A stretch of DNA of 53,552 bases. It comes from Spirochaetota bacterium. GTDB taxonomy: Bacteria > Spirochaetota > UBA4802 > JAGODF01. The notes under the pieces were generated by a model. The model saw only the letters and a program-made list of their open reading frames with translations, searched no databases and was not told the origin of the DNA. Every line of letters starts with the position of its first letter. Positions within the stretch are counted from its first letter, which is position 1. Positions 7,351 through 27,215 of the stretch are shown here, piece after piece. The DNA is taken from contig JAGODF010000001.1 of assembly GCA_017998375.1 (NCBI GenBank), forward strand, positions 1-53,552, given 5' to 3'. The position numbers and the translations under genes were made by a program.

Positions 7351-7353
7351 TAA

Positions 7354-7399
7354 TGCGCGTCCAAGAGGATTCGAACCTCTGACCCACGGATTCGTAGTC
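7354..7399 (-). repeat. int-distal att repeat = displaced 3' half of tRNA-Arg(ACG)
   Basis: 46 nt match 27216-27261 at 44/46 positions; mismatches at 7364 and 7380. Confidence 0.9.
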
Positions 7400-7878
7400 A
7401 AGAAAGCGAAAAATTTATCTACGTTTCCCGGTGTTTCTCATTGTTTATTACTGTTGATATAATAATGAAGAAAGTCAAGTGAAAAAACAGTGGTCAACGA
7501 TGAGAAACAACGATAGTGTTTTCATTCATCTTACATTTATCTGACACGGACAATTGATTAGTAACCTTGCAGATGAGTAAGGATCGGTCTCCAATATCGA
7601 CTGAGATGCTCCCTAAAGGCTTATGGTGGTGTGTATGAAGACTTAGTGAGGTGTGTGACCCCTTCCCGGTACAGTTTCCTTCCTTTTTAAAATTATTAAA
7701 GATCAACAATGAAGGTGTACCCTGCTATTTTGAGTTCTGTAATTATGAAAAAGATAAATTATGGTAACATTGTTGACAAACAGCAGATTTAACTCCATTA
7801 TCCAGCTATACCAGAAACAAATAGCTTTCCTCTGAGATTATGGTGCATGTTTTAATCAGGATTTAAGAAAACAGATAA

Positions 7879-8658
7879 ATGGCAGGTTCTTCAATGAAAA
7901 GATATATGATTATCCTATTACTTTTCATCATCACGTTCGGTATCAGATATGCATATAGTCAGTCCGGTGAAAATAATAAAGAGGATATAGCAGAAGAAAA
8001 CAGCAATACGGTAAAAGCGATAAATTCCACAGCATGGAAAACTGATTCAGATACAATTCTGTCAATAATAACAAATTTACGAAATTATAAAGAAAGCTCT
8101 GATGATTCAACCCTAAAGACCAAACAAAAACAAAATACTCTGAAGCGGGAATTATTTAAAATAAATAAAGATTATCACAATAAGCCTTTATCATTGAAAG
8201 CAATAATAATTGAAGATGTAACCGCTGAAAAAGATTTATCTGATTATGGGAAAAGAAGAGCAAAAGAAATACTCCGTAAAATAAAAAAAGATCCATCATC
8301 TGCAATGTTTATAGGTGACGGGAATCTTGAAAACAATCCTCTGCTCGTTTTTACATTAGCAATACACCTTGCACTGTGCGAAAAATGCTATAAGGAAACC
8401 GGGCGTTATGAGGTTAAATGCAAAATTCCTGTGCCAGATGAAACTGGTTACTCTCAATTCAGAACAGGAATTAAAGCGGGCAACTCTTTAAGTGATGATA
8501 ATGATAAAATCGACGCTGAAATAATTTTAATCCTGCAATCTGAAAAAAAGGCATTGGATTATTCAAAAGGATCAATCATCCCTATTAGCGGCAAGATAAA
8601 AAGCATTGTTTATAAGGGGTCTCAATTCTTTGAATCAGTTACTATTAGGATTGAATAA
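7879..8658 (+). CDS. Secreted hypothetical protein
   Basis: Signal peptide MKRYMIILLLFIITFGIRYAYSQ (alternative ATG at 7894); no recognisable domain. Confidence 0.5.
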   Translation: MAGSSMKRYMIILLLFIITFGIRYAYSQSGENNKEDIAEENSNTVKAINSTAWKTDSDTILSIITNLRNYKESSDDSTLKTKQKQNTLKRELFKINKDYHNKPLSLKAIIIEDVTAEKDLSDYGKRRAKEILRKIKKDPSSAMFIGDGNLENNPLLVFTLAIHLALCEKCYKETGRYEVKCKIPVPDETGYSQFRTGIKAGNSLSDDNDKIDAEIILILQSEKKALDYSKGSIIPISGKIKSIVYKGSQFFESVTIRIE

Positions 8659-8706
8659 TGTATTGTAATAAATTCATGGCGTTCCTGTAAAGCAACACGA
8701 GCAGAA

Positions 8707-9108
8707 ATGAGTGATAAGTTAAAAACACAAAAAATTATCTGCTTCATTAACGACTATATGAAGTGGGACGACACAATCCATGAACACGCCTGCATTTTCA
8801 ATAATATTTATTCAGTATATCCCAACCTGATGCTTGCATCAAAAACAACATGGAAGAAAATCGATAAGTACGCGAATCTTTTCAATCCTGATAATATAAA
8901 AGCTTCTGAATCAAGCATTGAAAATATCAACCTTGAGGAAGAAATAAAAACAATATCCTGTTTTACAACATCTGATTATTCGATTGAATTTTGCTTTGAT
9001 GAAAAGGTTAAAGAAGATTATTTTATTCTGGTTTTCGATGAAGAACCTATATTTGATGGCGAGCCTGTTGACGATGATACGACAGAAGTATATCGAAGGA
9101 TAGCTTGA
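8707..9108 (+). CDS. Hypothetical protein with strongly acidic C-terminal half
   Basis: ATG start, 48 nt after the upstream gene and 48 nt before the RM gene. C-terminus is DEKVKEDYFILVFDEEPIFDGEPVDDDTTE. Confidence 0.45.
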   Translation: MSDKLKTQKIICFINDYMKWDDTIHEHACIFNNIYSVYPNLMLASKTTWKKIDKYANLFNPDNIKASESSIENINLEEEIKTISCFTTSDYSIEFCFDEKVKEDYFILVFDEEPIFDGEPVDDDTTEVYRRIA

Positions 9109-9156
9109 AATACTTATTATGAGAATCAATAGCTGAGGAAAAGAGTATAAAAAGAA

Positions 9157-11895
9157 ATGAAAAAAGAACTAGTTCAACTAAGAAATTATATTACAAGCCC
9201 AGAATCAGAAAACGCTTCTAACCATCATGTTTATCCATTTTTTCAGCGAGTATTTAGAGAAGATAAATTTAAAAAAGAATCTGAGGCTGCTGGGGCAGAT
9301 ATCTATATTGAGGGCCGTCTTGTTGTTGAGCTGAAAACCTCCGAGAATGATTGGTTAAGCGGATTTTTCCAAGCTTTACATTACAGCAGAAAGGGGTTGA
9401 GCTTTTCCGCAATCTCTGTAATAACAAAGAATTTCATTGGTCTATGGCATGTAGACAACTTACCTGCCGAAGTAAATACAATACTCACCAATTCAGATTC
9501 TAATAAATCTGCCAATGAAATGGGTAGAATAAATGCGAATAAGTGCAGTAAGGCCCTCGAAAAGCAAATATTGACCAGAGCCAATTTTTTATATGAAAGC
9601 GAAGTCAATCTCTTTAATCCCGACCTGGATGTCCAGCTCCTTGAGTTCGAGGACCGTTTAAAAAACCTGGATGTTATCCGCAATCAAATAAATCCCGGTA
9701 ATTTCTTGCGGAAAATCGGCCTTTTAAAGCAATTTTTCACCAATCCCCTGGACGCTATCCATTGTTTTTATACAATCCTCCCCTTTTGGGATGTTACATC
9801 AAAGGTGCCAGATGCTCTTCCATCGAAACCGACCCATCTTCTTCTAACCACAAAGAGCGGGTCAGCAATTAGCGAATCATTCATTATGGAGCCTAAACAC
9901 CATAAGGATTTTAGAAGTTTTGTAGAGAGCCACTATGTTTTTACCAACGATGAAGGCGGGATTTCTATTGATTATTATTTCAGCCGCTTCGACGAAGCTC
10001 TTGCGGAGCACGACCCAGATTATGTAAAGCAGCACGGGATATTCTTTACGGATATCAACTTGAGCAGATTTGCGCTATGGTTTATCAGGGAGAAATTTGG
10101 CGAGAAGAAATTAAGTGATAAATATATAGTAATCGATCCTGCTGGGGGGTCCGGCAATCTTGTAAGTAGCTGGAGAAGGAATCATCTAAAATTCAAAATC
10201 GTATCCGAGCTAAATCCTGATCTCCTTAGAACTATTGAATTGCGACTGAAACATGATCCCGTGCAAATAGAGCAAGGGTATAGCATTATCCCCAGAACAC
10301 ATGAAAATAAGGGTCTAAATTTTATTGATAAACCGGCCGGGGACTACTACTCCATTTTGGAACGGTATTTAAAAGAAGAAGGAAAATCGATAGATAAGCC
10401 TTTCGCTTTCCTACTGAATCCTCCCTATAAAAACACGGATGAAAATGAAACTGTCCGGGATCAAACCGAGGCAAATTACGGTATTGATCCGTCCATCGTT
10501 CAATTAACCGGAAATGATGCCGGAAACGAAAGATACCTGGCGTTCCTTGCTCAAATTCTTGAAATCAGCAAACTGCAAAAAGAGAAACTGCCCGATATTG
10601 AACCGGCTTTAATGATATTTACGCCAACATCCTGGTTGATTCCCCGACCATCATATAAATCATTCCGAGAAAAATTTGATGCTTATTTCAAATTTGAAAA
10701 AGGTTTTATGATCACAGGCCAGGAGTTTTTCAAGGGAACCGGACGATGGCCAGTAGCTTTCACAATATGGAGATACAACCAGCGTAAAAACAACAATAAG
10801 GTGATATTGCTTGATTTGACCGATTTGCCGGGATCAGCTTTTTTAACGGTAAACTGGAACGAAAGCCTTGAAAAAATTAACACCGAGGTTAAAAGGATAA
10901 TCCGTGGTAAAAATGAAGTATTATTTGATGAATCAAGGGAACAAATTAAAGAAACACTACCATTGCTGATAAACACAAAGAACAATGAGGCAGAAAAACA
11001 GCAGATGTATGATTTTAAGCGAAGCCCGACCGATACTGAATTAAAATCAAGATCAATCTTTGGGGGATTACCTCTTAAAGACGTAAGGAGGGCCAACAAA
11101 AAAACCTATGGATCACATAACGGGAATTTCATTGGTTTCATGGATAATGGCACTCCTGTACGGGTAAACCAGGATAAATACAATCGAATGTCCCTGAAGC
11201 CAGATAGAATTTGGTTTCGATTGGATAACGAAATAAAAAGTGTCAACAAATCAAAGTTGTTCAATGGTCCCACGGATAACAGATCGTATTGTGCCTATGA
11301 TTTAGAATCAGCAAAGTCTCTTATTTCATGGTTTTCCATCACAAAAGCAATAAACGGGGTATATCCGGTTTGGGCAAACCAATTCGATATTTGGGCACCC
11401 AGCATACCCACAAAGTACGAGCGCGATTACTATGCTCTTTGCTTTGCATTTGTATTAGCTGAAAATCGCTGCATAGTTACAAAATTTGAAAAGGATAATC
11501 CCGTCGAAGGTGCTCCTGAAATCTTTGTGGATAATCCGTTATGCCCGATCAATTCAGATTCATTTTGGTCAAAAACACTCGATCCAGAGGTTGCCGAACC
11601 ATTGGCAACCAAGCTCGTTGATTCCATCAAATCACTTTACACCTATTGGAATGTCAATTATTGCAGGGGGCAACAAGTGGATTATGCTGGCCTCCAGGAT
11701 GAACCATATTTTAAATATTTTGACTATCCCGATTTTGTGACTCCATATTCGGGATTGATCCAAATTAAAAAGTATGCGGAATTACAAGGAAAAACTGATA
11801 TATCCCAGGTATTTGATACCATCAGGGAGTTGACGAAACAGGTAAAAGAAAGCATCTACAATATGCTTGTGCAAGATTTTAAGTATTTTGAATAA
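9157..11895 (+). CDS. Single-chain Type IIG/IIL-like restriction endonuclease / N6-adenine DNA methyltransferase (MmeI-like architecture)
   Basis: N-terminal D-X9-E-X-K (ADIYIEGRLVVELK) followed by QALHY, as recalled for MmeI (DLFWPGILLIEMK...QALDY). SAM motif I is VIDPAGGSGNLV and motif IV is LLNPPYK. The C-terminal region of about 400 aa could be a target-recognition domain. 912 aa. Confidence 0.6.
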   Translation: MKKELVQLRNYITSPESENASNHHVYPFFQRVFREDKFKKESEAAGADIYIEGRLVVELKTSENDWLSGFFQALHYSRKGLSFSAISVITKNFIGLWHVDNLPAEVNTILTNSDSNKSANEMGRINANKCSKALEKQILTRANFLYESEVNLFNPDLDVQLLEFEDRLKNLDVIRNQINPGNFLRKIGLLKQFFTNPLDAIHCFYTILPFWDVTSKVPDALPSKPTHLLLTTKSGSAISESFIMEPKHHKDFRSFVESHYVFTNDEGGISIDYYFSRFDEALAEHDPDYVKQHGIFFTDINLSRFALWFIREKFGEKKLSDKYIVIDPAGGSGNLVSSWRRNHLKFKIVSELNPDLLRTIELRLKHDPVQIEQGYSIIPRTHENKGLNFIDKPAGDYYSILERYLKEEGKSIDKPFAFLLNPPYKNTDENETVRDQTEANYGIDPSIVQLTGNDAGNERYLAFLAQILEISKLQKEKLPDIEPALMIFTPTSWLIPRPSYKSFREKFDAYFKFEKGFMITGQEFFKGTGRWPVAFTIWRYNQRKNNNKVILLDLTDLPGSAFLTVNWNESLEKINTEVKRIIRGKNEVLFDESREQIKETLPLLINTKNNEAEKQQMYDFKRSPTDTELKSRSIFGGLPLKDVRRANKKTYGSHNGNFIGFMDNGTPVRVNQDKYNRMSLKPDRIWFRLDNEIKSVNKSKLFNGPTDNRSYCAYDLESAKSLISWFSITKAINGVYPVWANQFDIWAPSIPTKYERDYYALCFAFVLAENRCIVTKFEKDNPVEGAPEIFVDNPLCPINSDSFWSKTLDPEVAEPLATKLVDSIKSLYTYWNVNYCRGQQVDYAGLQDEPYFKYFDYPDFVTPYSGLIQIKKYAELQGKTDISQVFDTIRELTKQVKESIYNMLVQDFKYFE

Positions 11896-11959
11896 CTGAA
11901 TGATGTATAATGAGTTTCTGTTTATATTATTTTATTCTCCAACGTCCTGACATTTCTAA

Positions 11960-12790
11960 ATGTTTAGAATTACTATTATACCAATGCCTGTTGAGGAGGA
12001 TTGGATTTTTCTTGCTGGCAGCATTGGAATAATTATAATATTCGAGGTAATAAATTTGTTAAATGCTATGTATAACATTCTCTTCAAGGAATTGTACTAC
12101 TCTTATTGCAATATTATCAAAGATTCCCGATACAGCAAAAAGAAATATTGCCTCATGTATCCTTGTGTCGGAGAATATTATAGGAAATCCAAATTTTTAT
12201 TTGTGGGGCGTGCTGTAAATGGTTGGAATACTCAATTTGTGTGTAATAGAAAAAACTATTCTATTGTAATAAAAAGTATAAAAGCCTCAATGAAAGAAAA
12301 AACAAGATGGATCGAGGACAATGAAAAAGGATTAAATGAGTATTACAATGGTAATAGAAGTAGATTCTTGAAATGTTGTTCTCGGGTATTACATGAAGTC
12401 ACTCAAAAAAATATTATGATGGATTCTCATTGGTCAAAACACATTGCATGGTCAAATCTCATGAAAATCGCCCCTTCAAAAGGCGGCAATCCGACTGACC
12501 GAGAGTGTTATGCTCAACTGGACATTTGCCGCGATCTTTTCAAACTCGAACTTGACCTTCTAAAACCTCGATTTGCATTTATTTTCACTGGTTTGAACTG
12601 GTTCGATAACGGTGACTTTACATTCGTATCGCCATTGGGGATTAAGTTGAAATTCGTCAAAGATAAAGTCGTAAAAGCGATCGGAACTTATAAAAGAACA
12701 CAGCTGATTATTACGGAAAGACCCGATAATCGGAGGGAGGGGTTTACGAATGACATGTTTGTGAAGAGTTTTAAAAAATACATAGTTTAA
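11960..12790 (+). CDS. Divergent uracil-DNA-glycosylase-superfamily (family 4/5-like) protein
   Basis: SNLMKIAPSKGGNPTDRECYAQLDICRDLFKLELDLLKPRFAFIFTGL parallels the UDG-family pattern N.VKCRPP.NR.P...E...C...L..E+.L+.P+++..LG. Motif A is replaced by FVGRAVNGW and motif B by ITERPDNR. The start is uncertain (ATGs at 11960, 11984 and 12068). Confidence 0.45.
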   Translation: MFRITIIPMPVEEDWIFLAGSIGIIIIFEVINLLNAMYNILFKELYYSYCNIIKDSRYSKKKYCLMYPCVGEYYRKSKFLFVGRAVNGWNTQFVCNRKNYSIVIKSIKASMKEKTRWIEDNEKGLNEYYNGNRSRFLKCCSRVLHEVTQKNIMMDSHWSKHIAWSNLMKIAPSKGGNPTDRECYAQLDICRDLFKLELDLLKPRFAFIFTGLNWFDNGDFTFVSPLGIKLKFVKDKVVKAIGTYKRTQLIITERPDNRREGFTNDMFVKSFKKYIV

Positions 12791-12902
12791 TATATAAAAA
12801 CATCGAAAGAAACCTTATGGGTAAGATATTAGCATAGCGTTACAAATATTATTCCGATATGAATAGTAGCTTAATGGAGCGTATTTGTGCTTTGTTTTAA
12901 TG

Positions 12903-12953
12903 TTGACGTGGAATAAAGACGTGGTATTTATCAAATTCTTGAAATCTTTCAAG
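12903..12953 (+). promoter_or_regulatory. Candidate promoter/operator of the PanA-toxin operon
   Basis: TTGACG (12903-12908)-N16-TATTTA (12925-12930). Direct GACGTGG repeats at 12905 and 12918. Perfect palindrome CTTGAAATCTTTCAAG at 12938-12953. Confidence 0.3.
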
Positions 12954-13012
12954 TATTTGATTACTTTCCTATTGGGTACAAAAAGATTTTAATACGGTTG
13001 ATATAATAAAAC

Positions 13013-13561
13013 ATGAACACCATTAACCTTCATACCCTTTTGCTAAATATATTAAAATCTGTTAAAGAATACAGAGATGGTATTCTCATCACACGACTTA
13101 TAAAAATGGCATACCTTGTTGAGGTACTCTACTATCGTAAATTTCATCAAAGATTGACAGACGCCCAATGGGTCTATTATAAGTACGGTCCATATATAAT
13201 GGATATTGATACCCACCTTAGTGATAGAAATATCATAGCAGAAGAAATCGAAGATAAAGAACTCACAAAGTTCATGGTAAAGGATTATGCTGAAATTGAT
13301 GAGGTGCCAGCCGAAGTTCAGACAATCATCTCATCAATTATAAGGAAATACCATGATGTTGAGCTGAGTGACTTATTGGATTATGTATATTATGAAACAG
13401 AACCAATGATGAATGCAGATCAAAGAGGAGAGGTTCTTGATTTCTTAAAAATATTACCAAGCGAATATTATAAAGTAAAAAAACTTGAGTGTTCTGATGA
13501 TGTCATCAAAGATATTAAACTAAAGTATAAAGAAAAAATAAAAAATGCCAAGCACTTATAA
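13013..13561 (+). CDS. Panacea-domain (SocA-like, DUF4065) putative antitoxin
   Basis: ITRLIKMAYLVEVLYYRKFHQRLTDAQWVYYKYGPYIMDI fits the Panacea signature (KL.KL.Y......G.P.....+.A...GP). It overlaps the downstream gene by 17 nt. Confidence 0.6.
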   Translation: MNTINLHTLLLNILKSVKEYRDGILITRLIKMAYLVEVLYYRKFHQRLTDAQWVYYKYGPYIMDIDTHLSDRNIIAEEIEDKELTKFMVKDYAEIDEVPAEVQTIISSIIRKYHDVELSDLLDYVYYETEPMMNADQRGEVLDFLKILPSEYYKVKKLECSDDVIKDIKLKYKEKIKNAKHL

Positions 13562-14333
13562 GGGTATCCCCGATTTATACGATACGGTTTGTGGGGAATT
13601 CGATTCGAGCTTCTACGATTGGATATTACCACCGGAATCAAGTACATTGCAGGTGGGTCAGTTGTGTAATGCCCCGGTATGGTATGAGAGAAAAAAACGC
13701 TGGTATCTTACAGAAGAACATTATTATCCCACAAGGGAGGAGGAATCCACCTGGAGAGCAAATATATATTCGGGAAAAAGTAAAGTAGAAAGAGAACCTC
13801 AGCATATTGTTGCAAAATATTTTGAACTGGAAAAAGGTGAAAATCTTTTTGCTTCTCCCGGAAAGTACCGACCTGTAATCCTTATAAGAAAATATCAAAA
13901 TGATTGGCTTAACCCAGCTAATACATCTGAGCATATAGCTACTTGGTTATGCCTTCCATTGTTTTCATATAAAGACAGACACAACCAACCATTTGTACTG
14001 AATGACATGGCTTTTAAAAGCCCTGAAAGAGTATATATCCCTCCAAGTTATAAAGATAAACCCGGTGGTATCATTGAAAGTTCAGCGCAATTTCTTTCAA
14101 TCCAAATGATTAAGGAAGAATACTTAGAGCCTTTGACGTCAATGAGTGGAATTCGACCGCCTAAAATGCAAAGACCATTTAGAGTGAGCAATTTCGCTCT
14201 TAAAATCATCATGTTCCATTTCCTCAAACATTTCAATCTGTTTGATGTTTTATTGGACAGTTGTGATACTGATGGGAAAACTGCTTATACTTTATTTGTG
14301 GAAGAAGTAAATGAGATTCTTTCAAAGTGCTGA
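13545..14333 (+). CDS. Putative toxin partner of PanA; long, insertion-bearing PemK/MazF-like protein
   Basis: Ordered MazF-like elements: VGQLCNAPVW, then GKYRPVILIRKY, then WLCLPLFSYK, then ESSAQFLSIQMIKEEYLEP. There is an insert of about 55 aa and a helical C-terminal extension. Translationally coupled to PanA. Confidence 0.35.
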   Translation: MPSTYKGIPDLYDTVCGEFDSSFYDWILPPESSTLQVGQLCNAPVWYERKKRWYLTEEHYYPTREEESTWRANIYSGKSKVEREPQHIVAKYFELEKGENLFASPGKYRPVILIRKYQNDWLNPANTSEHIATWLCLPLFSYKDRHNQPFVLNDMAFKSPERVYIPPSYKDKPGGIIESSAQFLSIQMIKEEYLEPLTSMSGIRPPKMQRPFRVSNFALKIIMFHFLKHFNLFDVLLDSCDTDGKTAYTLFVEEVNEILSKC

Positions 14334-14351
14334 AAACTCTGGAGTTGATTA

Positions 14352-14546
14352 ATGACAAAAATTGTATGTGAAGGGTGTGGAGCTGTTTATGAGATTGAAG
14401 AACATCACATTATAATGCGCGATAAAGATTCGATTGAATGTCACCATTGTAACACTACTTTAATTTCATGGAATGGTGGTCATTGGTATACGGATAAAGA
14501 AATTTCTGGACCAACTAAAAACTTCATAAAAAAGGAAAACCTTTAA
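14352..14546 (+). CDS. Small zinc-ribbon protein
   Basis: CEGC...CHHC pairs; GGAG RBS; starts 18 nt after the putative toxin gene. Confidence 0.5.
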   Translation: MTKIVCEGCGAVYEIEEHHIIMRDKDSIECHHCNTTLISWNGGHWYTDKEISGPTKNFIKKENL

Positions 14547-14914
14547 ACTTATTATTGATTTTCTTCTATTTGATTCCTTAAATCTATTAATACGCTGTCG
14601 TCACCAACGGCGATGAATGGCCTAACCGGCACTGTACGACCAAAACTATCAATCATTATGTTTGCAATCAAAAAGATTAGGGCGAATAATTTAATATTTT
14701 TGCTCAGGTCGATAATTATTCCATGAAACTCCTCGAATGCCACCAATGCCAGCACAGAGTAACCCTCACCGACCAGGGGGGGTATTTGTGATTATTATGA
14801 TGATAAGCGTCACCGACTGGCATTTGAAACGGTTGACAAGACTAGGGAAGTGATTCCATGCCCGAGGGAGGAGATGATTGTCAGGCAATAATATTATTAT
14901 ATGGTTAGATTCTC

Positions 14915-15157
14915 TTACTTTTCGATATCAAGAAGATTGCGAGGATGAAGATTCAAGGAATTTGCAATTTTAACTAATGTTTTCATCGTGAAATTGACTT
15001 CACCATATTCTATTCGTTGAAAATATTTGTAATCTACACCATTGACTTCAGCCAACTTTTCCTGGGTTAAACCTGCCTTTTCCCTTTCAGCTTTAATTAT
15101 TCGTCCTACCTGGAGCAGAAAATCAGAAGCATTATATTGATTCCCTCTTTGTTTCAT
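14915..15157 (-). CDS. XRE-family helix-turn-helix regulator
   Basis: AGLTQEKLAEVNGVDYKYFQRIEYGEVNFTMKTLVKIANSL. The canonical ATG is at 15157; the track ORF starts at a TTG at 15163. Confidence 0.8.
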   Translation of the reverse strand: MKQRGNQYNASDFLLQVGRIIKAEREKAGLTQEKLAEVNGVDYKYFQRIEYGEVNFTMKTLVKIANSLNLHPRNLLDIEK

Positions 15158-15189
15158 TAGCAAATACTATCAAAATGTAATTGCATTAA

Positions 15190-15211
15190 ACACCGTACTA
15201 TAATACGGTGT
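15190..15211. promoter_or_regulatory. 22-bp palindromic operator candidate centred on a TATAAT box
   Basis: ACACCGTA-CTATAA-TACGGTGT lies in the divergent region between the XRE gene and the 15253 gene. Confidence 0.45.
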
Positions 15212-15252
15212 AGCGAATTATTGATATTCTTGAAATTAGATTAGGTGTTGGT

Positions 15253-16707
15253 ATGAAAACTGATATCGAAGAATGTCTAAAAATATTGCCAAGACTATTA
15301 GACTTCGCCAATTTGCCAGATGCGTATATCTCTATGATACTTAATGAGATTAGTCAGGCTTATAACGATAATTTAACAGATATAAAATTAACAAGCAATC
15401 TATACTGGCTATTCCATACTCCCAAAGAAGGTGATAGAGTTGTCAAAGGTAAGAAGGGAGGTGGTATTTATGGAACAGTATTTAAAGATGATGATGGACA
15501 ACTAAGTATAAATCTTGATGAGCCGTTAAAAACATCGAAGGAAAAAATATTTAAATTAAGGGGAGGGTACAATAAGATTGTTGAGGATGCTCTACTATTA
15601 AACTGGAATTATATTTCTTCAAATTCCTTACAGTATATTTATAATAACATGAAGCTGGCTGAATATGAAGAATTATCAAGAAGTAAACCGGTATATTTCG
15701 TTTATCATGGTAACTCGCCATGTAAATGGTGCAAAAAACACAAAGGCACTATTGTACGTTTGCTCCCTCGTGAGATTATTGAAAATGATATTGATGAACT
15801 TTCACATTATGGAATAGATGATATTCATGCAAAAACGGTAATCTGGTTTAATAAAAATAATATTAACCATTCTAAATTAAGAGTATGTGCCTTCCCACAT
15901 ACCGAGGAAGAGCATACATGCGGTATTGATCTCTTACCAATCAATCTTGAAGCTATTGAAGAAGTTCATGAAAAAAAGAAAGGGAACTTCGATTTTTCAA
16001 CAAAGATACGAAACCTTCTTAAAAAGAAAAGATTTAAGTTTGGATCAGGTGAACCGATGACACCTGAACAGTGGGAAATATTCGATAAAAGCATAGATGC
16101 ACGATGGAAGAAAGAGGTTGAAAGGATCACCGGTGTTACTGCAACGAAGGGAGACAGACCTCAATTTGAAACAAGGAAAAAGCCTTATCGAAATAATAAT
16201 ACAAAAGAATGGTATAACCCAGAAACAGGGCAGGTAGAAAAAACACAAATAAAACGAAAGTTCATTCCTCAAGAAATTGATTATTCATATCAGAGTAAGG
16301 AAGAAAAAGAATATCGAAAACCGACATTTATTGAAAGCGACAAGGTGAGATACAATAATAATATTTACGAGCGTGTTGCACCAGGAGATTACGAAAAGAG
16401 AAAAGCGGTATGGGATCGGGATCGAACATTACCGATTCCAGTTTCAACAGACAGCACCAGGTATGAAAAAATATTTGGTGCGACGAAAAATAAAAAAAAG
16501 GAGAAAGACAATCGGAAGCCAACGTTTATAGGAGAAAATCTTGTTAGATTCAATAATAATATTTATGAAGCTGTTCCCGCAAGTGAATATAATCGGAAGT
16601 TGGAAGAATGGAGAAAAGACCCAACAAAACCAGCTCCAGTAAATGAATCCGGGCCTGGGTATAAAAGAATTTTCGAAGAGGCAGGTAAAAATAGGAACAA
16701 GGAGTAA
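15253..16707 (+). CDS. Hypothetical protein, possibly phage MuF/SPP1-gp7-like head-morphogenesis domain plus C-terminal tandem repeats
   Basis: SPCKWCKKHKGTIV and FPHTEEEHTCG loosely resemble the MuF pattern D.R.C..C..L.G ... PP.HPNCRC. Two copies of a unit of about 66 aa: RKPTFIESDKVRYNNNIYERV... and RKPTFIGENLVRFNNNIYEAV... Confidence 0.3.
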   Translation: MKTDIEECLKILPRLLDFANLPDAYISMILNEISQAYNDNLTDIKLTSNLYWLFHTPKEGDRVVKGKKGGGIYGTVFKDDDGQLSINLDEPLKTSKEKIFKLRGGYNKIVEDALLLNWNYISSNSLQYIYNNMKLAEYEELSRSKPVYFVYHGNSPCKWCKKHKGTIVRLLPREIIENDIDELSHYGIDDIHAKTVIWFNKNNINHSKLRVCAFPHTEEEHTCGIDLLPINLEAIEEVHEKKKGNFDFSTKIRNLLKKKRFKFGSGEPMTPEQWEIFDKSIDARWKKEVERITGVTATKGDRPQFETRKKPYRNNNTKEWYNPETGQVEKTQIKRKFIPQEIDYSYQSKEEKEYRKPTFIESDKVRYNNNIYERVAPGDYEKRKAVWDRDRTLPIPVSTDSTRYEKIFGATKNKKKEKDNRKPTFIGENLVRFNNNIYEAVPASEYNRKLEEWRKDPTKPAPVNESGPGYKRIFEEAGKNRNKE

Positions 16708-16743
16708 TACATGGTAATTAAAAATTCAGTCATGGAGTAGATT

Positions 16744-17286
16744 ATGAAAAAATATTTAATTGTAATTTCGCTAATATTTTCAATTTCTTTATCCGTAAAT
16801 GTGCATTCAGCGGGAGTGCCAGATATAGGGTACAGAGAATTCAAATTAGGAATGCAAAGAATTGTCGCCGAAAAAATTGTTAGGGACAAATACCTCAATG
16901 AATACGCAGTAAATTTCAATGCTGTTGCTAAAAAAGATAAAAACATAATTGAAATTAAAGATAAGAACATTCAAAATAAATATATATTTTTGTATTTCAA
17001 CGAAAAAAATAATTTATATGACATAATTGTTTGGGCCGCTTACATGGATAATATAAAATATACTGTTTTAGTAAATCAGTTAGTTGATAAATATAAAACA
17101 CCATATTCAAAAAGATTAGACACAGGTGGGTATTATCATCTTGGATGGGTGTGGGATAATAAAAAGTATATAATCCAATGCTTCTATGAAGCAGACATCG
17201 AAACAGTTTTCATAACCTATTCGAATAATTATTTGAAAGAAAAATATCACAAGTATCTTTATGGAGATGGATTAGAGGATTTTTAA
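16744..17286 (+). CDS. Secreted hypothetical protein
   Basis: Signal peptide MKKYLIVISLIFSISLSVNVHSA; no recognisable domain. Confidence 0.5.
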   Translation: MKKYLIVISLIFSISLSVNVHSAGVPDIGYREFKLGMQRIVAEKIVRDKYLNEYAVNFNAVAKKDKNIIEIKDKNIQNKYIFLYFNEKNNLYDIIVWAAYMDNIKYTVLVNQLVDKYKTPYSKRLDTGGYYHLGWVWDNKKYIIQCFYEADIETVFITYSNNYLKEKYHKYLYGDGLEDF

Positions 17287-17365
17287 TTTTCAATATCAAT
17301 TCATCGTCTGTTTATTAGTGTAGAAATGGTTAATGCCAGTTTATTGAAATAATGTAGAATAACTA

Positions 17366-17965
17366 TTATGGAATTCGTTGTTCATCTTCATCTAATAGCT
17401 CCTGTGGATCACGGGCCGGAACAACCGTGATTGTTTCAGTATGCCCTACATCTTCCTGGACCATCCCGAGGATTTTAACGAGCAATGCCAGGGCCGCGAT
17501 CTTGTCATACATTACAACAGAAAAAGATTCTGAGCCGCTAACACTGGTTTTGTGCCTCAAGGATTTAACAGCCCTGGTATCAACTTCTGATAGATTGTGA
17601 AGGTTTATATTGCCGTTTGAGAAATTAATAATATCAAAAATATCGCTAAAAGCAATGGCTTGAATTTCAGCCAGAGTTCGACCGCATAATGCTTCACGCG
17701 AGGCCCAGAGTGTATCGAGGCGCTCTTGGATGGCTCCGGAAATGTTGCTTTTTGTTAACAGTCGTGCTGCGGCGGCTCTTGCAGCATTTGCTTTTGCCAA
17801 TGGGTATGCAGCTCTGTAGCTTGCCGATCCGTTCATCGTTCTTATATATTCTAAAACGAAAACACGCTGTCGGTCGTTTAATGAATCCCATGCGGATATT
17901 TCAACCTGATGCCCTGGTTTTGTTTTCTTCCTTGATGCCTTAATGATTTCAGTATTATCGTTCAT
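17366..17965 (-). CDS. terS: Phage terminase small subunit (Terminase_2 / P27-like)
   Basis: LNDRQRVFVLEYIRTMNGSASYRAAYPLAKANAARAAAARLLTKSNISGAI fits the pattern LT.KQ..F..EY....N...A...AGYS.......A..LL....V...I. Confidence 0.65.
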   Translation of the reverse strand: MNDNTEIIKASRKKTKPGHQVEISAWDSLNDRQRVFVLEYIRTMNGSASYRAAYPLAKANAARAAAARLLTKSNISGAIQERLDTLWASREALCGRTLAEIQAIAFSDIFDIINFSNGNINLHNLSEVDTRAVKSLRHKTSVSGSESFSVVMYDKIAALALLVKILGMVQEDVGHTETITVVPARDPQELLDEDEQRIP

Positions 17966-18179
17966 TTTTCTTTTTACTCTTTCGTTTGGCTTGGCATTCC
18001 GGACAGTATGGCCAGCAGCGATAAATTACCCAACCGCCGCGATCAGGCGAAATAAAATCGCTATAGTATATCCAGTTAAAGCAATTTCTACACCAGACCC
18101 ATGGACGGGATTGATCATCTGGTATTTTAAATTTCAACTTGTACCTTCCTTGCCCGCACCACTCAATAAATATGGGCAA
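17955..18179 (-). CDS. Small Cys-rich (zinc-ribbon-like) protein
   Basis: CRNC...CPEC; TTG start only; overlaps terS by 11 nt. Confidence 0.35.
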   Translation of the reverse strand: MPIFIEWCGQGRYKLKFKIPDDQSRPWVWCRNCFNWIYYSDFISPDRGGWVIYRCWPYCPECQAKRKSKKKNER

Positions 18180-18189
18180 ATGCTATATA

Positions 18190-18465
18190 TTAAGCCTGCT
18201 GCATTTCCCAATCGAGATAAAAGCATGATCGTAATATATCTTCAGTCACTTCACGCCAATATGATGCTTTTTGAGCAATCATCTCTTCTTTGGTTAATCC
18301 AGGTGAACAATCCCCCTTTGCCTTTTCCCATTCATCATCATGATTAGCATTAATTATCTCATTGACACCTTCATCCAAATATTTTTTTATTTTAGATTCT
18401 TGTTCTATTTTATACTTTTCCAATTTGAGGTTTTTCGAAAATTCACTTGTTTGTTGATTACTCAT
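18190..18465 (-). CDS. Hypothetical protein
   Basis: Strong RBS AAGGAGATAAAA before the ATG at 18465; 91 aa, charged. Confidence 0.5.
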   Translation of the reverse strand: MSNQQTSEFSKNLKLEKYKIEQESKIKKYLDEGVNEIINANHDDEWEKAKGDCSPGLTKEEMIAQKASYWREVTEDILRSCFYLDWEMQQA

Positions 18466-18551
18466 TTTTATCTCCTTGAATTATAATGTAATTCCATTCC
18501 ATGCATTAGTACTGCCAAAAAAGACATGTAGAACAATCTATATTTGCACTT

Positions 18552-18660
18552 GAAACTGCAAACAGCGCAAACACAACAAACGAAAACAATATAAATTAAA
18601 GTAAAGTGTTTGCGTTATTGGTATTGTTTGTGTTGTTTGCATCGTTTGTGTTGTTGGTGT
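18552..18660. other. Candidate replication origin: inverted arrays of 9-bp-phased CAAAC/GTTTG iterons flanking an AT-rich core
   Basis: CAAAC at 18559, 18568 and 18577. GTTTG at 18608, 18626, 18635 and 18644, with degenerate copies at 18617 and 18653. AT-rich spacer 18586-18607. The region straddles the stop codon of the primase-helicase gene. Confidence 0.45.
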
Positions 18661-20503
18661 TTTTTGTAGATACCGCCTGATATTCTCCTCGTGATGATCT
18701 GATAATTTGACCGGCTTCGCACATTTTCATTAGCAAGAATCTGGTTGTACTTTGATTTTTGTTAAGAACTTGTGCGATGTCCTTCGGTTTCATCGACCCA
18801 TTTGCGGCCCGTAGTGTGTCGATTATTTCTTGACGTGCTTTACTGTCAGCAATCTCTGTTGCGTCTCCCACTATCTCCCAGCGGCATGTTGGAGTGTCAA
18901 ACCTGACAGCAAGTTCGCGCTCCTCAATATCGCGTCCCGTTATCGATAGCACAGCGTCACCTTGTCCTCGCTTGCGTGCCAATATTAAAACAGTATCGGC
19001 TACACCTGTTATTCCAATTGATCCCACAGCGGCATGAATGAAATCTGTAACTTCTGCTTTCTTAGCATGGTGAACAACAATTATTGCAATTCCATATTCA
19101 TCCGCGAATGCCTTTATCGGAGTAAGTGCTGCTGTCGTTTGCGAGTAGTCATTATTGTCTTTGACAGTGGTAAAGCGTGCAAGGGTATCGATAATTATAA
19201 CTGTGGTGTCAGGGTGTTCATCCATCCACTTGTGTAGCCAGATAAATCCTTTTCCGTCTGGAGCCCAATTTGTCATGATGTGGCAATTATCGGATGGAAC
19301 CGCAGACTGTTTTTTTAATCTATTTTTAATACGTCGTGGCGTGTCCTCAAGGAATAGAGAAAGGGTGCGTCCCAATGGTATCGGAATACTACCTAAGATG
19401 GTTCCCCCCATGGACATGGTAATGGCTATATCGAGACCAAACCATGATTTACCAATTTTTGGCGTACCCGCTAGGACTGTGAGTCCTTGGGGTATGATGC
19501 CAGGTATGATGTAAATGGGTTCTGGGAAATCTGTAGTGATGAGTTCTGCTGCAGTCCAAACCTTAAAGTTGGGTTCAGTATTTTTGGTTTTCATTCTTGG
19601 GCATGTCTTTATATATTCCACCAAGTCTAATCCTTCAGACTGTGCATCTGCGATATCCCATCCCTTTGGCTTTCCGGTGATTTGGAGGACCTCTGCGTGA
19701 GGAAGTTTTGCTTTAATGTCCTCGGCTGCTTGAAACCCCGCCAGATCGTTGTCCGGCCATATAATGGTCTTGTGTCCTCGTAATGGTTTCCAGTCAGTTT
19801 TATTAACTGCCTGAGAACCCCCAATCCATGTCACGGTAATATATCCCGGTACTTGGACCTCAGCGCACTTCTCTCCCTCAACGATGATGATTGGAAGGGT
19901 GCTCACAGTAAATTTGTCGATATTATATAACGGTCTATTGTTTTTTTTAGGATTGCCTGCAGTCCATTTGCCAGCCGTAGTGAAGTAATATGGAACAATA
20001 TTTTTTTTCCCATCTTTTTCGTGGCGAATAACTACTACCCATGATCTTTTATTGAAACGATAGTTCCAAACGGCGATGGCTTTGCCGAATTTTTCGACAA
20101 TGAATTTATTTGTTAGATGGATTTCAAGGTCATTTAATCTTTCATCGGGATTATACTCGGCTGGTATATGAAGAGTAGAATTATTTTGTTTCACGGGTGT
20201 TGAGTGAAATGTATCTGATGTAAGATGGCCAGCTGCCTCAACGATGATATTGGCTGCCTCGATCTTTGAAATTCCCTGGAATTTTTCAAGCAGGGTGATC
20301 ATATCGCCTTGGTCGTTGGAGGAAAAATCATTGTACAATCCAGATTCTGATATGCTAAACGAACCTGGATTTTTATCGTTGCGAAGAGGATTCTGAATCC
20401 AATATTCTCCGTGCTTCCATTCCCCACCAGGGAAAAGTCGTGAAATAATAGAGGGTGATATGGACTGGCGAGCCTGATCGAAGATGTCAGGATGAGTATT
20501 CAT
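18596..20503 (-). CDS. Bifunctional primase-helicase (Toprim domain + RecA-like/AAA_25 ATPase + C-terminal wHTH)
   Basis: Toprim IIIVEGEKCAE...IWPDNDLAGFQAAE. Walker A LAGTPKIGKS; Walker B VIIIDTLARF. ATG at 20503 after AAAGGGG. N/T-rich low-complexity tail. Confidence 0.75.
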   Translation of the reverse strand: MNTHPDIFDQARQSISPSIISRLFPGGEWKHGEYWIQNPLRNDKNPGSFSISESGLYNDFSSNDQGDMITLLEKFQGISKIEAANIIVEAAGHLTSDTFHSTPVKQNNSTLHIPAEYNPDERLNDLEIHLTNKFIVEKFGKAIAVWNYRFNKRSWVVVIRHEKDGKKNIVPYYFTTAGKWTAGNPKKNNRPLYNIDKFTVSTLPIIIVEGEKCAEVQVPGYITVTWIGGSQAVNKTDWKPLRGHKTIIWPDNDLAGFQAAEDIKAKLPHAEVLQITGKPKGWDIADAQSEGLDLVEYIKTCPRMKTKNTEPNFKVWTAAELITTDFPEPIYIIPGIIPQGLTVLAGTPKIGKSWFGLDIAITMSMGGTILGSIPIPLGRTLSLFLEDTPRRIKNRLKKQSAVPSDNCHIMTNWAPDGKGFIWLHKWMDEHPDTTVIIIDTLARFTTVKDNNDYSQTTAALTPIKAFADEYGIAIIVVHHAKKAEVTDFIHAAVGSIGITGVADTVLILARKRGQGDAVLSITGRDIEERELAVRFDTPTCRWEIVGDATEIADSKARQEIIDTLRAANGSMKPKDIAQVLNKNQSTTRFLLMKMCEAGQIIRSSRGEYQAVSTKNTNNTNDANNTNNTNNANTLL

Positions 20504-20545
20504 ACACACACCCCTTTTGCGACATCAATATAAGGTTTGATGAGT

Positions 20546-20728
20546 TCATTTCTTACCTCCGCAGTCCGAAGGTAAAAAGCTAATTTCGCGGGTTATAGTG
20601 TATCGAGCAAAACGGCCCCCGTGTCGAATTATCTCTAATTTTATTGAACCATGGGAAACTCCTGCGATTTCTTTTTCAAACTGGGATATTATTTCTTGAG
20701 GAATAAAATTTTTTTTGGTGGGTTCCAT
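20546..20728 (-). CDS. Small protein, YezD/DUF2292-like
   Basis: GVSHGSIKLEIIRHGGRFARYTITRE resembles the YGSV.L.+.+G+V pattern. The ATG overlaps the upstream stop (TAATG). Confidence 0.35.
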   Translation of the reverse strand: MEPTKKNFIPQEIISQFEKEIAGVSHGSIKLEIIRHGGRFARYTITREISFLPSDCGGKK

Positions 20729-20949
20729 TATTTTCCCTCCACAGCAATTGAATGCTCTTGCAAAAATGAATTTATTTCATCAAGATCATACCTGACCGAT
20801 CTCCCAATTTTATAATGAGGAATTTTTTTTTGTGATGTCCACAGCCTGACAGTTTGATTGGAGATGTTCAGATAATTGGCGAGTTGTTTCCCGTTAATTT
20901 TTTTTTGAAGCCAGAAACAATCACGAGGGTTTTCTTCTGGGGTTTTCAT
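20728..20949 (-). CDS. AlpA/excisionase-family HTH protein
   Basis: LANYLNISNQTVRLWTSQKKIPHYKIGRSVRYDLDEINSFL (HTH_17-type). ATG at 20949 after AGGAAGG. Confidence 0.7.
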   Translation of the reverse strand: MKTPEENPRDCFWLQKKINGKQLANYLNISNQTVRLWTSQKKIPHYKIGRSVRYDLDEINSFLQEHSIAVEGK

Positions 20950-21403
20950 AGCCGACACCTTCCTGCATTTTATCAGAAAATGTGCGCGGGCTATTTGGTG
21001 CCGAATTGCGCGAAGCTCACTGAAAAATGAAATATCGTGAACTTTATATAAACACCTTAATAGATAGCTGATCTTTTGTCAACAATTAAATATTCCATTA
21101 AACATAGTCATAACAAGATAAATTTTGAATATATGTATATCAGGCGATTTTAAAATGAGGCAAGTAATCGGACAAAAGAGTTAGTTATGTCATGTATGAG
21201 CTAATGATAATAGAAAAAGCAATAATATATTAAACAAGTCGGAATTCCCTATTCTAGGAAGAACTTTTTGCAAACATGATTATTTTGAGAGAAAACAATT
21301 ACAGTGAGAGGGTTACATTTAAATAATTGAAAACTTAGAATACTTGACAAAAATAATAAAATTGTAAAATATGTATTAATCAAAACAACATCAATAATTT
21401 AGC

Positions 21404-21856
21404 ATGTTGATAAAAAAAGCAAAAGCGAATCTTGACATCGCGCGATATTGTGCAGGTTGTTCAGATGTTAGCTATTATTCAGTTGGTGCGTCAAGAGCTT
21501 ATTACTCAATTTTTCAATCAGCAAAGTCGATATTGCAAAATGGATCATTCGATTATTTTTCTTTTCTGAACACAATACCAAAGAGAAAGGAATATGATCA
21601 TGATAATCATAAGCCTTATTCTCATGGTACAATATCTTCTGCTTTATGCACTTATATTTCCAAACGTCCCAAATATATCGAAGAAACTCATAAATATTTA
21701 CAATTTCAAATAAATGCGACTTTTAGCGCACTTTATAGTTTGCGAGTTCAAGCCGATTATGAGGGTAAGGACATCGAAATAAGTATTCTTAACGACGCTA
21801 TAAAGAAAGCCGAAAAACTAATATCTGATCTAAAATTATTTATTGGATTTAATTAG
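21404..21856 (+). CDS. HEPN-domain-like protein (putative toxin of a TAC-like operon)
   Basis: AKANLDIARYC...SRAYYSIFQSAKSIL, YSHGTISSAL and LYSLRVQADYEGKD match the classical HEPN helix pattern (A..dL..A...YyA.f.a.kAlL...sH.g...lR..adY). Confidence 0.5.
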   Translation: MLIKKAKANLDIARYCAGCSDVSYYSVGASRAYYSIFQSAKSILQNGSFDYFSFLNTIPKRKEYDHDNHKPYSHGTISSALCTYISKRPKYIEETHKYLQFQINATFSALYSLRVQADYEGKDIEISILNDAIKKAEKLISDLKLFIGFN

Positions 21857-22349
21857 CATGGATTACGAAATAGCAAATATAATTAGAGACCATATTTATG
21901 AGTATAAATACAGATTCGGATTTTTACCTGTAAAACTATCTATAATAAATAATGAGATATTTGTTCTTATAAATTCACTCGAAGTATTAGATAATAATGA
22001 ATACCAAGAGATGATTTATAATTTTAATACTGAATATTTCAAGAGAGGTTATGTTAATATTTATTGGGGTATAGATGATTTCATTGATGACGATTTTAGT
22101 CAATTGTATGAATATAGTAATTTCATCATTCCTATGATCAAAACATCATCAGCAAATATTTTAAATGAATTTGATCTAACAAAGAATCTTGATAATTATT
22201 TAAATATATTTGATAATTGCCAAAACGATATCGAAACTACGGGAAAAATAACAACGTATTTGGATTATAATAAAGATAAGCAACCAATAAAAGAGAATGT
22301 AATAAAAAACAAATTTGTTCCTAATGTAAATTTTACACTAGCGGCATAA
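21843..22349 (+). CDS. Acidic hypothetical protein (putative antitoxin of a TAC-like operon)
   Basis: Overlaps the HEPN gene by 14 nt (an alternative ATG at 21858 starts 2 nt after the HEPN stop, leaving a 1-nt gap). D/E/N-rich; no MNT GS..D.D motif; ends 2 nt before the SecB-like gene. Confidence 0.45.
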   Translation: MDLISMDYEIANIIRDHIYEYKYRFGFLPVKLSIINNEIFVLINSLEVLDNNEYQEMIYNFNTEYFKRGYVNIYWGIDDFIDDDFSQLYEYSNFIIPMIKTSSANILNEFDLTKNLDNYLNIFDNCQNDIETTGKITTYLDYNKDKQPIKENVIKNKFVPNVNFTLAA

Positions 22350-22351
22350 AT

Positions 22352-22825
22352 ATGAATAACCAGATACTTTTAAATTTTGAAAAAATTTACTATCCTGAAA
22401 TTCGTCTTTCGTATAATCCGAAGTATAAAAATAATTATGATATGTTTACAGATGTAAGGGAAATTGAGTGTAAAATATCTATTGCTGGGAATGTTAATAT
22501 TATTAACGATAATAAATTGATTTGTATTGTAAACTGCAATGTTATGTGTAACCATAAGGACTTTGCAGATTTTTCGAGATTAAATATTATTTCACATGGG
22601 ATATTTGCTACCCCAGATAAATTTTCCATTGAAACAGTTCAAGAGTATCATCAGAATTTTTATGCTATAGTATACCCATTTATTCGAGAGACGGCTCATA
22701 GTGTATTTATGAAAAATAGAATAAGCTTTATTATGCCAATAATAAACTTTCTTCAAACAATTAAAGACAATCCTTCTAATTTTAAAATTATGCAAACAAA
22801 TAACAATGGAGATGATAAAGCCTAA
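22352..22825 (+). CDS. SecB-like chaperone
   Basis: LNFEKIYYPEIRLSYNP aligns with E. coli SecB FQIQRIYTKDISFEAPN. SHGIFAT...FYAIVYPFIRETAHSVFMKNRISFIMPIINF aligns with GGIFSI...[32 protein letters not shown]. Confidence 0.7.
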   Translation: MNNQILLNFEKIYYPEIRLSYNPKYKNNYDMFTDVREIECKISIAGNVNIINDNKLICIVNCNVMCNHKDFADFSRLNIISHGIFATPDKFSIETVQEYHQNFYAIVYPFIRETAHSVFMKNRISFIMPIINFLQTIKDNPSNFKIMQTNNNGDDKA

Positions 22826-22871
22826 TTTCGTTGATAAAGCTAAAACTGAGAAAATTTGACTTGGAATCAAC

Positions 22872-23456: not shown

Positions 23457-23489
23457 TAAAATAAACCCTCCCTCATTGATGTTATAAAG

Positions 23490-24224: not shown

Positions 24225-24289
24225 GTTAAATAATCGACAGTTAATATTATGCTAACTGTTGTAAAAAATATCAAGGTATAATATTCAGA

Positions 24290-25914: not shown

Positions 25915-25915
25915 A

Positions 25916-27112: not shown

Positions 27113-27215
27113 TCTCCTCGCAAGATAACGTCATCTGACATTTATCTCACTTTTTAAGATAATGAGAAACGCCGGTTTTCCGGTAGTCTCTGATGCCTGA
27201 ACTATTCAGGACTTA

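Follow-up and report, generated by a model that had tools for sequence, protein, structure and literature searches.

Introduction

What does a gene resembling a DNA repair enzyme do on a mobile element, directly behind a restriction enzyme? The question is raised by an open reading frame (ORF) at positions 11960–12790 of the forward strand within a 53,552-nucleotide stretch of contig JAGODF010000001.1, referred to here as the window, from a Spirochaetota bacterium (assembly GCA_017998375.1). An earlier reading of the letters alone, called here the original prediction, took its product for a divergent uracil-DNA glycosylase (UDG) with altered catalytic motifs, and suggested a possible antiphage activity related to that of Brig1, with a phage Ugi decoy or an inactive DNA-binding module as alternatives.

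Glycosylases of this kind have precedents in phage defence. Brig1, an antiphage glycosylase of the UDG superfamily, excises alpha-glucosyl-5-hydroxymethylcytosine (Hossain et al. 2024, PMC11078745). Brig2 defends against phages with 5-NeU/5-acetylaminomethyl-deoxyuridine and acts on hypermodified thymidines; of seven integron UDG-like proteins put to the test, it alone was active (Getz et al. 2025, bioRxiv 10.1101/2025.10.29.685425). Brig3, whose partner is the deglucosylase BapA, excises 5-hydroxymethylcytosine, and its structure can be closely superposed with a model of Brig1 (Mejia-Pitta et al. 2026, bioRxiv 10.64898/2026.02.25.707755).

The gene in the window is confirmed, on its modelled structure, as a real and very divergent member of the UDG superfamily fold, and it is supported as an accessory, horizontally moved gene rather than a housekeeping one. 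Taken together, fold, motifs, conservation, distribution and context tip the balance towards a predicted stand-alone antiphage DNA glycosylase for a non-canonical pyrimidine.

Fold and superfamily placement

The AlphaFold2 model of the UDG-like protein, computed with a 44-sequence alignment as input, has a predicted local distance difference test (pLDDT) score of 87.3 and a predicted template modelling (pTM) score of 0.87. Strands are predicted at residues 43–49, 126–132, 169–173 and 211–216; residue numbers count from the methionine at 12068 (240 amino acids) unless stated otherwise. In a Foldseek search of the PDB with this model, the best 50 matches are all UDG-superfamily enzymes (E 4e-5 to 5e-3, probability 0.90–1.00). 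The top match is human TDG (4z3a; E 4e-5, TM-score 0.54 on the target), the S. tokodaii family-4 UDG 4zby is matched at E 5e-5, and further matches include T. thermophilus and T. maritima UDGa, UdgX, MUG and SMUG1. AlphaFold2 and Foldseek together thus place the protein in the alpha/beta fold with a central parallel sheet of the UDG superfamily. TM-scores are modest, at 0.4–0.55, as would suit a divergent core into which about 70 residues are inserted between strands beta-1 and beta-2. Against a viral structure library, the matches are remote phage UDGs and UDG-like domains of phage polymerases only.

By sequence, the Pfam UDG family PF03167 matches residues 127–215 of the 276-residue frame at 19.7–20.2 bits (E 7e-4 to 9e-4), short of the gathering threshold of 24.3 bits. 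This is exactly the segment quoted in the original prediction as the superfamily core, and the same Pfam family is matched at E<=0.01 by 41 of 100 aligned relatives, with a best E of 1.2e-8. A direct PDB sequence search with the protein returned no match, and a search with the family profile returned a non-significant match to 4zbx (E 0.09) along with spurious matches to UNC5D. Profile comparison and the AlphaFold2 and Foldseek results nevertheless agree on the UDG fold that had been proposed.

The protein belongs to a large family. An exhaustive HMMER search finds 1076 representatives of 50%-identity clusters at E<=1e-3, and 524 at E<=1e-10. This family is unnamed: it is without a Pfam or NCBIfam family of its own and without a defence-finder model. 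Its core pattern is nearest to the family 4/5 UDGs, while its overall fold score is nearest to TDG/MUG.

Extent of the gene

The longest reading frame, 11960–12790 (+), encodes 276 amino acids, and public gene calls of the locus give versions of 276, 268 and 244 amino acids. About 150 relatives of 220–260 amino acids have alignments that start at residues 34–40 of the query. A GAGG sequence at 12044–12047 lies 8 nt 5' of a TTG at 12056, with an ATG at 12068 four codons downstream, and no Shine-Dalgarno-like sequence was found before the ATG at 11960 or that at 11984. The coding sequence is probably 12056–12790 (+), with 244 amino acids from TTG 12056, or 240 amino acids if it starts at ATG 12068. 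The in-frame extension at 11960–12055 (+) codes for a hydrophobic stretch of 32 amino acids that is unmatched among the homologs listed. Because homologs begin at query residues 34–40 and GAGG precedes TTG 12056, the first 32–36 or so residues of the ORF are probably untranslated and would be a leader or promoter region; a weak sigma-70-like site lies at 11947–11976, between the restriction gene and the UDG-like gene.

The revised start changes one detail of the original prediction. The gene does lie directly downstream of the restriction gene on the same strand, but the gap from the upstream stop at 11895 is probably about 160–172 nt rather than the 64 nt given by the longest ORF.

Conserved motifs and covariation

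Conservation was counted over 100 relatives whose identity to the query is only about 30%, and residue roles are assigned from alignments and conservation. In about 23 columns conservation reaches 85% or more, and the window copy keeps the family residue in all of them except W101, which is replaced by Leu.

The equivalent of motif A is G47-R48-A49-V50-N51-G52-W53 (12206–12226, +), at the C-terminal end of strand beta-1, where GE[AG]PG sits in canonical enzymes. Counts per 100 relatives are G47 100, R48 89 (Gln in 10), A49 92, N51 96, G52 92 and W53 92, with Pro at position 50 in only 10. In the HMMER alignment of the family profile with 4zbx, which is not significant alone, VGRA falls on the VGEA of the VGEAPG motif A, and NL.K...P...C..LL..EI....P falls on ITNVVKCRP...C..YL..QI...P. 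Strand beta-2 carries W128-S129-N130-L131-M132-K133 (12449–12466, +), within the Pfam match and at the position of the base-recognizing Asn of UDG families; W128 is found in 97 relatives, Ser or Thr at 129 in 97, N130 in 99, L131 in 89 and K133 in 91. A near-invariant loop follows, G140-N141-P142 (12485–12493, +; 90, 99 and 100 of 100).

Other conserved positions are G35, ahead of beta-1 (99 of 100), and a set of residues in the insertion: W81 (93), S98 (87), F100 (96), W101 (87) and W122 (93). The helix after the loop and strand beta-3 contribute Q150 (92), C154 (72), E161 (93), P167 (100) and W178 (98). The canonical HPS of motif B is replaced by R218-P219-D220 (12719–12727, +), which hhalign aligns with the HP of HPSY. 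Position 218 is Arg in 67 relatives and His in 33, with nothing else, and P219 is kept in 98. The two states of position 218 covary with position 220: R218 is accompanied by Glu or Asp in 58 of 67 relatives, and H218 by Gln in 24 of 33. As judged from these alignments, the covariation looks like the upkeep of a functional residue that stabilizes the leaving group, not like decay.

Comparison of the family profile with the canonical family-4 UDGs of host relatives (hhalign pairwise E 2e-3) places N130 on the Asn of NVVKCRP and C154 on an Fe-S cysteine. An Fe-S cluster is unlikely, because the relatives do not conserve the N-terminal CxxC found in family 4. The replacements of motif A by GRAVNGW and of motif B by (E)RP, noticed at the outset from the letters, are borne out by the 4zbx profile alignment and by hhalign with the family-4 UDGs.

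Further UDG-like genes occur around this one. The host clade has a second conserved UDG-like family (L100–L108) with a degenerate motif A, VILNAP, followed by ITNIIKC and EHPV, and with a long N-terminal extension; hhalign relates it to the present family with a probability of 80% (E 1.5e-5). A third UDG-like gene of the host genome (L010, contig C421) has a GQDPT motif.

Distribution and horizontal movement

The host metagenome-assembled genome, 77% complete in 438 contigs, has a canonical family-4 UDG (126 bits), as do 18 of the 21 genomes of the host order. Of 41 related genomes, only two have the UDG-like family: the host and G007, a member of the same taxonomic family. The two copies are 30% identical and stand in different major clades of the family tree, and the G007 copy is an independent acquisition. 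It lies (L111, 8307–10548) in a 3-kb patch of 31–36% guanine plus cytosine (GC) between housekeeping genes, beside a 424-residue gene of unknown function that has no Pfam or PADLOC match. In the family tree, the window protein sits on a long branch as sister to Bacteroidota sequences from the environment (Chitinophagales, Spirosomataceae; support 90/93).

A pattern scan of 185,579 species genomes, run on a 14-sequence alignment, found 68 family loci. Their hosts are Bacteroidota, Clostridia, Pasteurellaceae, Planctomycetota, Myxococcota, Kiritimatiellia, Treponemataceae and one genome of the candidate phyla radiation; genome matches of the family as a whole are mostly from Bacteroidota and Bacillota. 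Relative to DNA more than 3 kb away, family genes are on average 4.3 GC points lower, with a negative difference in 44 of the 55 loci that have enough flank (Wilcoxon p ~1e-6, for loci that are not fully independent). Searching 50,697 phage and 72,556 plasmid records by tblastn gave no match to the family, and 2.9 million viral contigs of IMG/VR hold only two family loci, against the 68 in genomes. This near absence from phage records shows only that the gene is cellular, not phage.

Neighborhoods and fusions across the family

Neighbors were compared with crude ORF calls and all-against-all BLAST of the four genes on either side at 66 loci. No conserved partner gene emerged: no neighbor family occurs in more than 5 of the 66 loci, and none of the window's own neighbors was found near any family homolog. 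Among 122 immediate neighbors from the 66 loci, seven are BrxR-type WYL/WCX regulators; the three from Haemophilus lie at position -1 and the four from Bacteroidota at +1. Four are IetA-like AAA ATPases and three TRIP13-like proteins, and nSTAND and NACHT NTPases also occur. The remainder includes one PglX, two Type II methyltransferases (MTase_II), one Type I S subunit, two ADP-ribosylglycohydrolases and three Imm17 proteins.

Two cassettes can be recognized. In Bacteroidota (L012, L053, L057) an AAA ATPase, the UDG-like gene and a WYL/WCX regulator follow one another; in Haemophilus (L016, L018, L019) the order is WYL/WCX regulator, UDG-like gene and a 726-residue double-AAA IetA-like ATPase. 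Some subfamilies may work with an ATPase, and the window copy is without one. The closest metagenomic relatives, P0003 and P0002 (L004, L005), come from Bacteroidota-like genomes and share one variable hotspot, downstream of purA-OstA-GATase, where the cargo differs. A SIR2-STAND protein adjoins one of them; a Gp49/HTH toxin-antitoxin pair and two unknown genes lie near the other, and there one of the unknown genes overlaps the start of the UDG-like gene by 14 nt.

Two fusions were found. P0063 (913 amino acids) joins an N-terminal UDG-like domain to the PADLOC candidate PDC-S39 (DUF7380 and DUF4209; E 3e-37). P0069 (515 amino acids) joins the C-terminal part of a Type IIG/ISP restriction-modification (RM) enzyme (REase_MTase_IIG, E 2.5e-103; Type_ISP_C) to an in-frame UDG-like domain that is without its first helix. 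The expectation that the gene is an accessory of defence type rather than a host repair gene is upheld by several observations: the family-4 UDG of the host clade, the sparse occurrence of the UDG-like family there, the low-GC patches, the defence neighbors and the PDC-S39 fusion.

The carrier element and the restriction-modification neighbor

The UDG-like gene is carried by an AT-rich element of 19.9 kb (7353–27261), recognized by its composition, a tRNA-Arg, Pfam matches and 47-nt repeats. GC content is about 36% across it (33–39% between ~7.4 and 27.2 kb) and about 60–65% elsewhere on the contig. The attachment sites are direct repeats of 47 nt, 96% identical, at 7353–7399 and 27215–27261; they duplicate the 3' part of the tRNA-Arg(ACG) gene at 27217–27291. 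A tyrosine integrase (25916–27112, -), ParA and ParB adjoin the tRNA-Arg. Further into the element lies a primase-helicase (18596–20509, -; AAA_25 and a CHC2 zinc finger), and a small terminase is encoded at 17366–17965 (-). The element is genuinely integrated at tRNA-Arg and is satellite-like, resembling the phage-inducible chromosomal islands (PICI). The AT-rich mobile element of the original prediction is thus present, complete with attachment repeats and an integrase beside the tRNA.

Its cargo region comprises the UDG-like gene, the single-chain RM enzyme, a PanAT module and a HEPN module. An identical UDG-like protein occurs with the same neighbor order on three other metagenome contigs, so the arrangement in the window is not an assembly chimera. 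The downstream neighbor (13013–14333, +) is a Panacea-domain antitoxin (13013–13561; PF13274 SocA_Panacea, E 3e-10) with an overlapping putative toxin of 262 amino acids (13545–14333). An ORF of 484 amino acids at 15253–16707 (+) has no Pfam or PADLOC match and contains an internal duplication. Its direct repeats of 47 nt at 16345–16391 and 16543–16589, 74% identical, code for two copies of the motif RKPTF..V.(Y/F)NNNIYE.

The upstream neighbor (9157–11895, +) encodes a protein of 912 amino acids identified as a Type IIL/IIG-like single-chain RM enzyme by its invariant motifs and modelled fold. The PD-(D/E)xK residues D48, E58 and K60 and the NPPY motif (421–424) are invariant in 49 homologs, as is DPAGGSGN (327–334) apart from the partly conserved G330. 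The AlphaFold2 model has a pLDDT of 85.6, and its Foldseek matches are Type ISP LlaGI (5ffj), DrdV (7lvv), BrxX/PglX, MmeI (5hr4) and CamA, with E-values of 2e-7 to 3e-4 for LlaGI, DrdV, MmeI and BrxX. Nuclease, gamma-class N6-adenine methyltransferase and C-terminal target-recognition domain are thus combined in one chain, and the restriction enzyme named in the original prediction is accounted for. The protein matches no Pfam or PADLOC model, and its match to TIGR02987 is weak only. Its homologs number more than 600, come from Leptospiraceae, Bacteroidota, Ignavibacteriae and other groups, and in many cases exceed 50% identity. Among the matches listed, these are named 'hypothetical protein', except for a jgi entry named 'AraC-like DNA-binding protein' (P0310); P0231 has a further label in UniRef, that of a site-specific DNA methyltransferase. 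The models now used to find RM systems appear to overlook this RM family.

The RM enzyme is not a conserved partner of the UDG-like gene. Three close homologs that were examined are solitary genes in housekeeping surroundings, without a UDG-like gene close by, and no homolog of the 912-residue protein was found within about 8 kb of any of the 68 family loci. The most plausible reading of the adjacency in the window is that a cargo region has two independent single-gene defences side by side.

Relation to known glycosylases

Compared with known antiphage glycosylases, the UDG-like gene is most likely Brig-like by context and predicted function, and a distinct branch by sequence. With Brig1 it shares the superfamily fold, 4ZBY as a top structural match, a single gene of about 250 amino acids, a defence-island setting and the lack of a partner. 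Homology to Brig1 was nevertheless rejected: hhalign of the family profile with the Brig1 sequence gives a probability of 0.2%, for a sequence obtained by optical character recognition from the supplement of PMC11078745, in which small errors are possible. Brig1 has a GLNPG-type motif A and NFELYPWHSP, whereas the present family has GRAxNGW, W[ST]NLxK and [RH]P. The relation to Brig1 once suggested for the gene therefore stands at the level of the superfamily and not at that of sequence.

Brig2 and Brig3 can be compared by description only. Brig2 likewise has a divergent UDG fold; its homologs occur in Pseudomonadota, Bacillota and Bacteroidota and lie in A/T-rich patches near mobile elements and defence genes, a description that suits the present family just as well. 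Its reported spread is mostly in Pseudomonadota, whereas the present family is mostly in Bacteroidota and Bacillota, and five accessions of the family are not among the rows listed in the tables of the Brig2 paper. If the family were Brig2 itself, the finding would shrink to another copy of a known gene. Brig3 is a UDG-superfamily antiphage glycosylase with an aromatic-lined pocket, a feature also predicted for the UDG-like protein. It differs in forming an operon with BapA, an ASCH-like glucosyl hydrolase; in searches with Pfam, no ASCH or other hydrolase match was found in the window neighbors, and no recurrent partner was seen at the 66 loci. Brig3 is also close to Brig1 by superposition, while the present family has no detectable relation to Brig1.

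The family-4 UDGs (UDGa; 4ZBX/4ZBY, 1UI0, 1L9G) share the order of core elements, N-x-x-K...P...C-x-x-L...P...G and then [H/R]-P around beta-2, the helix and beta-3, and C154 (72%) of the UDG-like family aligns with one of their Fe-S ligands. They differ in motif A (GE[AG]PG against GRAxNGW) and in motif B (HPS against RPD in the window copy). They have four Cys ligands of a 4Fe-4S cluster, whereas the UDG-like family is without the N-terminal CxxC and the fourth Cys, and carries its insertion of about 70 residues, rich in conserved Trp, between beta-1 and beta-2. They are also housekeeping enzymes, whereas the UDG-like family is patchy and island-borne. TDG and MUG, which give the best Foldseek matches, are likewise without the motif-B His and the acidic catalytic residue. 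They are only 10–14% identical, have a GINPG that the UDG-like family is without, and are core-genome enzymes of mismatch repair.

A restriction glycosylase of the R.PabI type was rejected: the fold is that of UDG, not HALFPIPE, and the adjacent methyltransferase gene is not conserved beside family members. The main text of the 'Metagenomic selections' paper (PMC12366544) gave no UDG-like match.

Proposed mechanism and alternatives

As an antiphage glycosylase, the UDG-like protein would be a monofunctional enzyme of an unnamed branch of the superfamily, carried as defence cargo on the tRNA-Arg-integrated, satellite-like element. It would scan DNA and flip a non-canonical pyrimidine into an aromatic pocket made up of W53, W81, F100, W122, W128 and W178. 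There, N130 of strand beta-2 would read the flipped base, the motif-B Arg R218 (His in one third of the family) would stabilize the departing base, and the extended motif-A loop (R48/N51) would position the water. The substrate is envisaged as a hypermodified or replaced base missing from host DNA, for example a 5-substituted uracil or cytosine derivative or deoxyuridine (dU). Abasic sites across the phage genome would then block replication, as for Brig1, Brig2 and Brig3. Self and non-self would be told apart by base chemistry alone, so that no partner would be needed. The gene would also complement the adjacent RM enzyme, since modified phages would be expected to evade that enzyme.

Several points weigh against this proposal. 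No activity, substrate or phage phenotype is recorded for any family member. All public names of the members examined are 'hypothetical protein', and neither PADLOC 2.0 nor NCBIfam models match the protein, the PADLOC result being the one that counts against a defence role. Where motif A canonically has its water-activating residue (Glu, Asp or Asn at G-x-x), Arg-Ala stands instead, and a catalytic role for N51 is conjecture. The defence enrichment of neighbors is qualitative, without a matched control set, and several of the loci are close relatives. Finally, six of the seven integron UDG-like proteins gave no defence against the phage panel of Getz et al. (bioRxiv 10.1101/2025.10.29.685425), so a UDG fold and a defence context guarantee no detectable phenotype.

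A more specific form of the antiphage reading is possible, though held tentatively. The family would then be an undescribed 'seventh-type' UDG family, with Arg-Pro-acid as motif B in most members and G-R-A-x-N-G-W as motif A, acting as a stand-alone antiphage glycosylase on a modification unlike the targets of Brig1, Brig2 and Brig3. In some lineages it would be coupled to Type IIG/ISP enzymes, as suggested by P0069 and by the adjacency in the window, so that one locus would restrict both unmodified and hypermodified DNA.

The pocket might instead serve ordinary uracil or other deamination products, in repair of damage from deaminase toxins or conflict systems or in attack on dU phages. The near-invariant N130 is typical of UDG families that read uracil and thymine, and both Brig1 and Brig3 keep weak uracil activity (PMC11078745; bioRxiv 10.64898/2026.02.25.707755). 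A 2026 preprint connects defence against a deaminase toxin and against a uracil phage with a repair enzyme (PMC13648612). Three neighbors with Imm17 immunity domains, which belong to polymorphic-toxin loci, point the same way, although these matches were not traced to loci and are perhaps not independent. A second uracil enzyme would add little in a clade that already has a canonical family-4 UDG, and the number of additional conserved Trp residues suggests that the pocket is larger or different; on balance, a uracil enzyme is unlikely. A catalytically dead binder of DNA or of a modified base, working as a sensor or as a blocker by steric or UdgX-like trapping, is distinctly improbable. Motif A without a canonical Glu, Asp or Asn and the change of His to Arg in motif B of the window copy would suit such a protein, and UdgX, which crosslinks to DNA, is among its structural matches. 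MUG/TDG and family-5 enzymes, however, are active without the canonical motif residues. The conserved positions also coincide with the catalytic motifs instead of being spread along the sequence, and the alternation of Arg and His at 218, covarying with 220, resembles upkeep of a residue that stabilizes the leaving group. The inactive DNA-binding module entertained in the original prediction is disfavored by these near-invariant pocket residues.

That the gene forms a two-gene system with the Type IIL-like enzyme, whose methylation or target recognition would direct or license base excision, is very unlikely. The two genes do follow one another on the same strand, in an order kept on three metagenome contigs, and P0069 joins the corresponding parts in one frame, while a few other members adjoin MTase_II or PglX. 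But those three contigs encode an identical UDG-like protein and are copies of one element, not independent cases, and the probable intergenic gap of 160–172 nt contains the weak promoter-like site. The RM enzyme is also missing from the surroundings of the 68 family loci, its three close homologs stand alone, and no partner is conserved. There is a small probability, kept alive by the P0069 fusion, that some members of the family cooperate with Type IIG/ISP enzymes. Least probable of the readings considered is service to the mobile element itself, through anti-defence or DNA maintenance in replication or packaging, or through interference with a helper phage. Satellites carry helper-interference genes, and the PICI-like carrier has its own primase-helicase and small terminase. 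Most members, however, lie off such elements, in chromosomal variable regions beside defence regulators, and the family is almost absent from collections of phages, plasmids and viral contigs, in which genes that protect an element should turn up.

Implications

Base excision has only recently been seen as an antiphage strategy, with Brig1, Brig2, Brig3 and the Dag enzymes, and these cover few phage modifications. Within the family, the switch between Arg and His in motif B, with its covarying partner, offers a clean natural experiment on how enzymes of the UDG fold stabilize the leaving base. The enzyme might also yield a reagent for detecting a particular modified base. Assignment of a substrate would add to the known repertoire a defence gene that current annotation tools miss, from a family of about 1000 clusters across many phyla.

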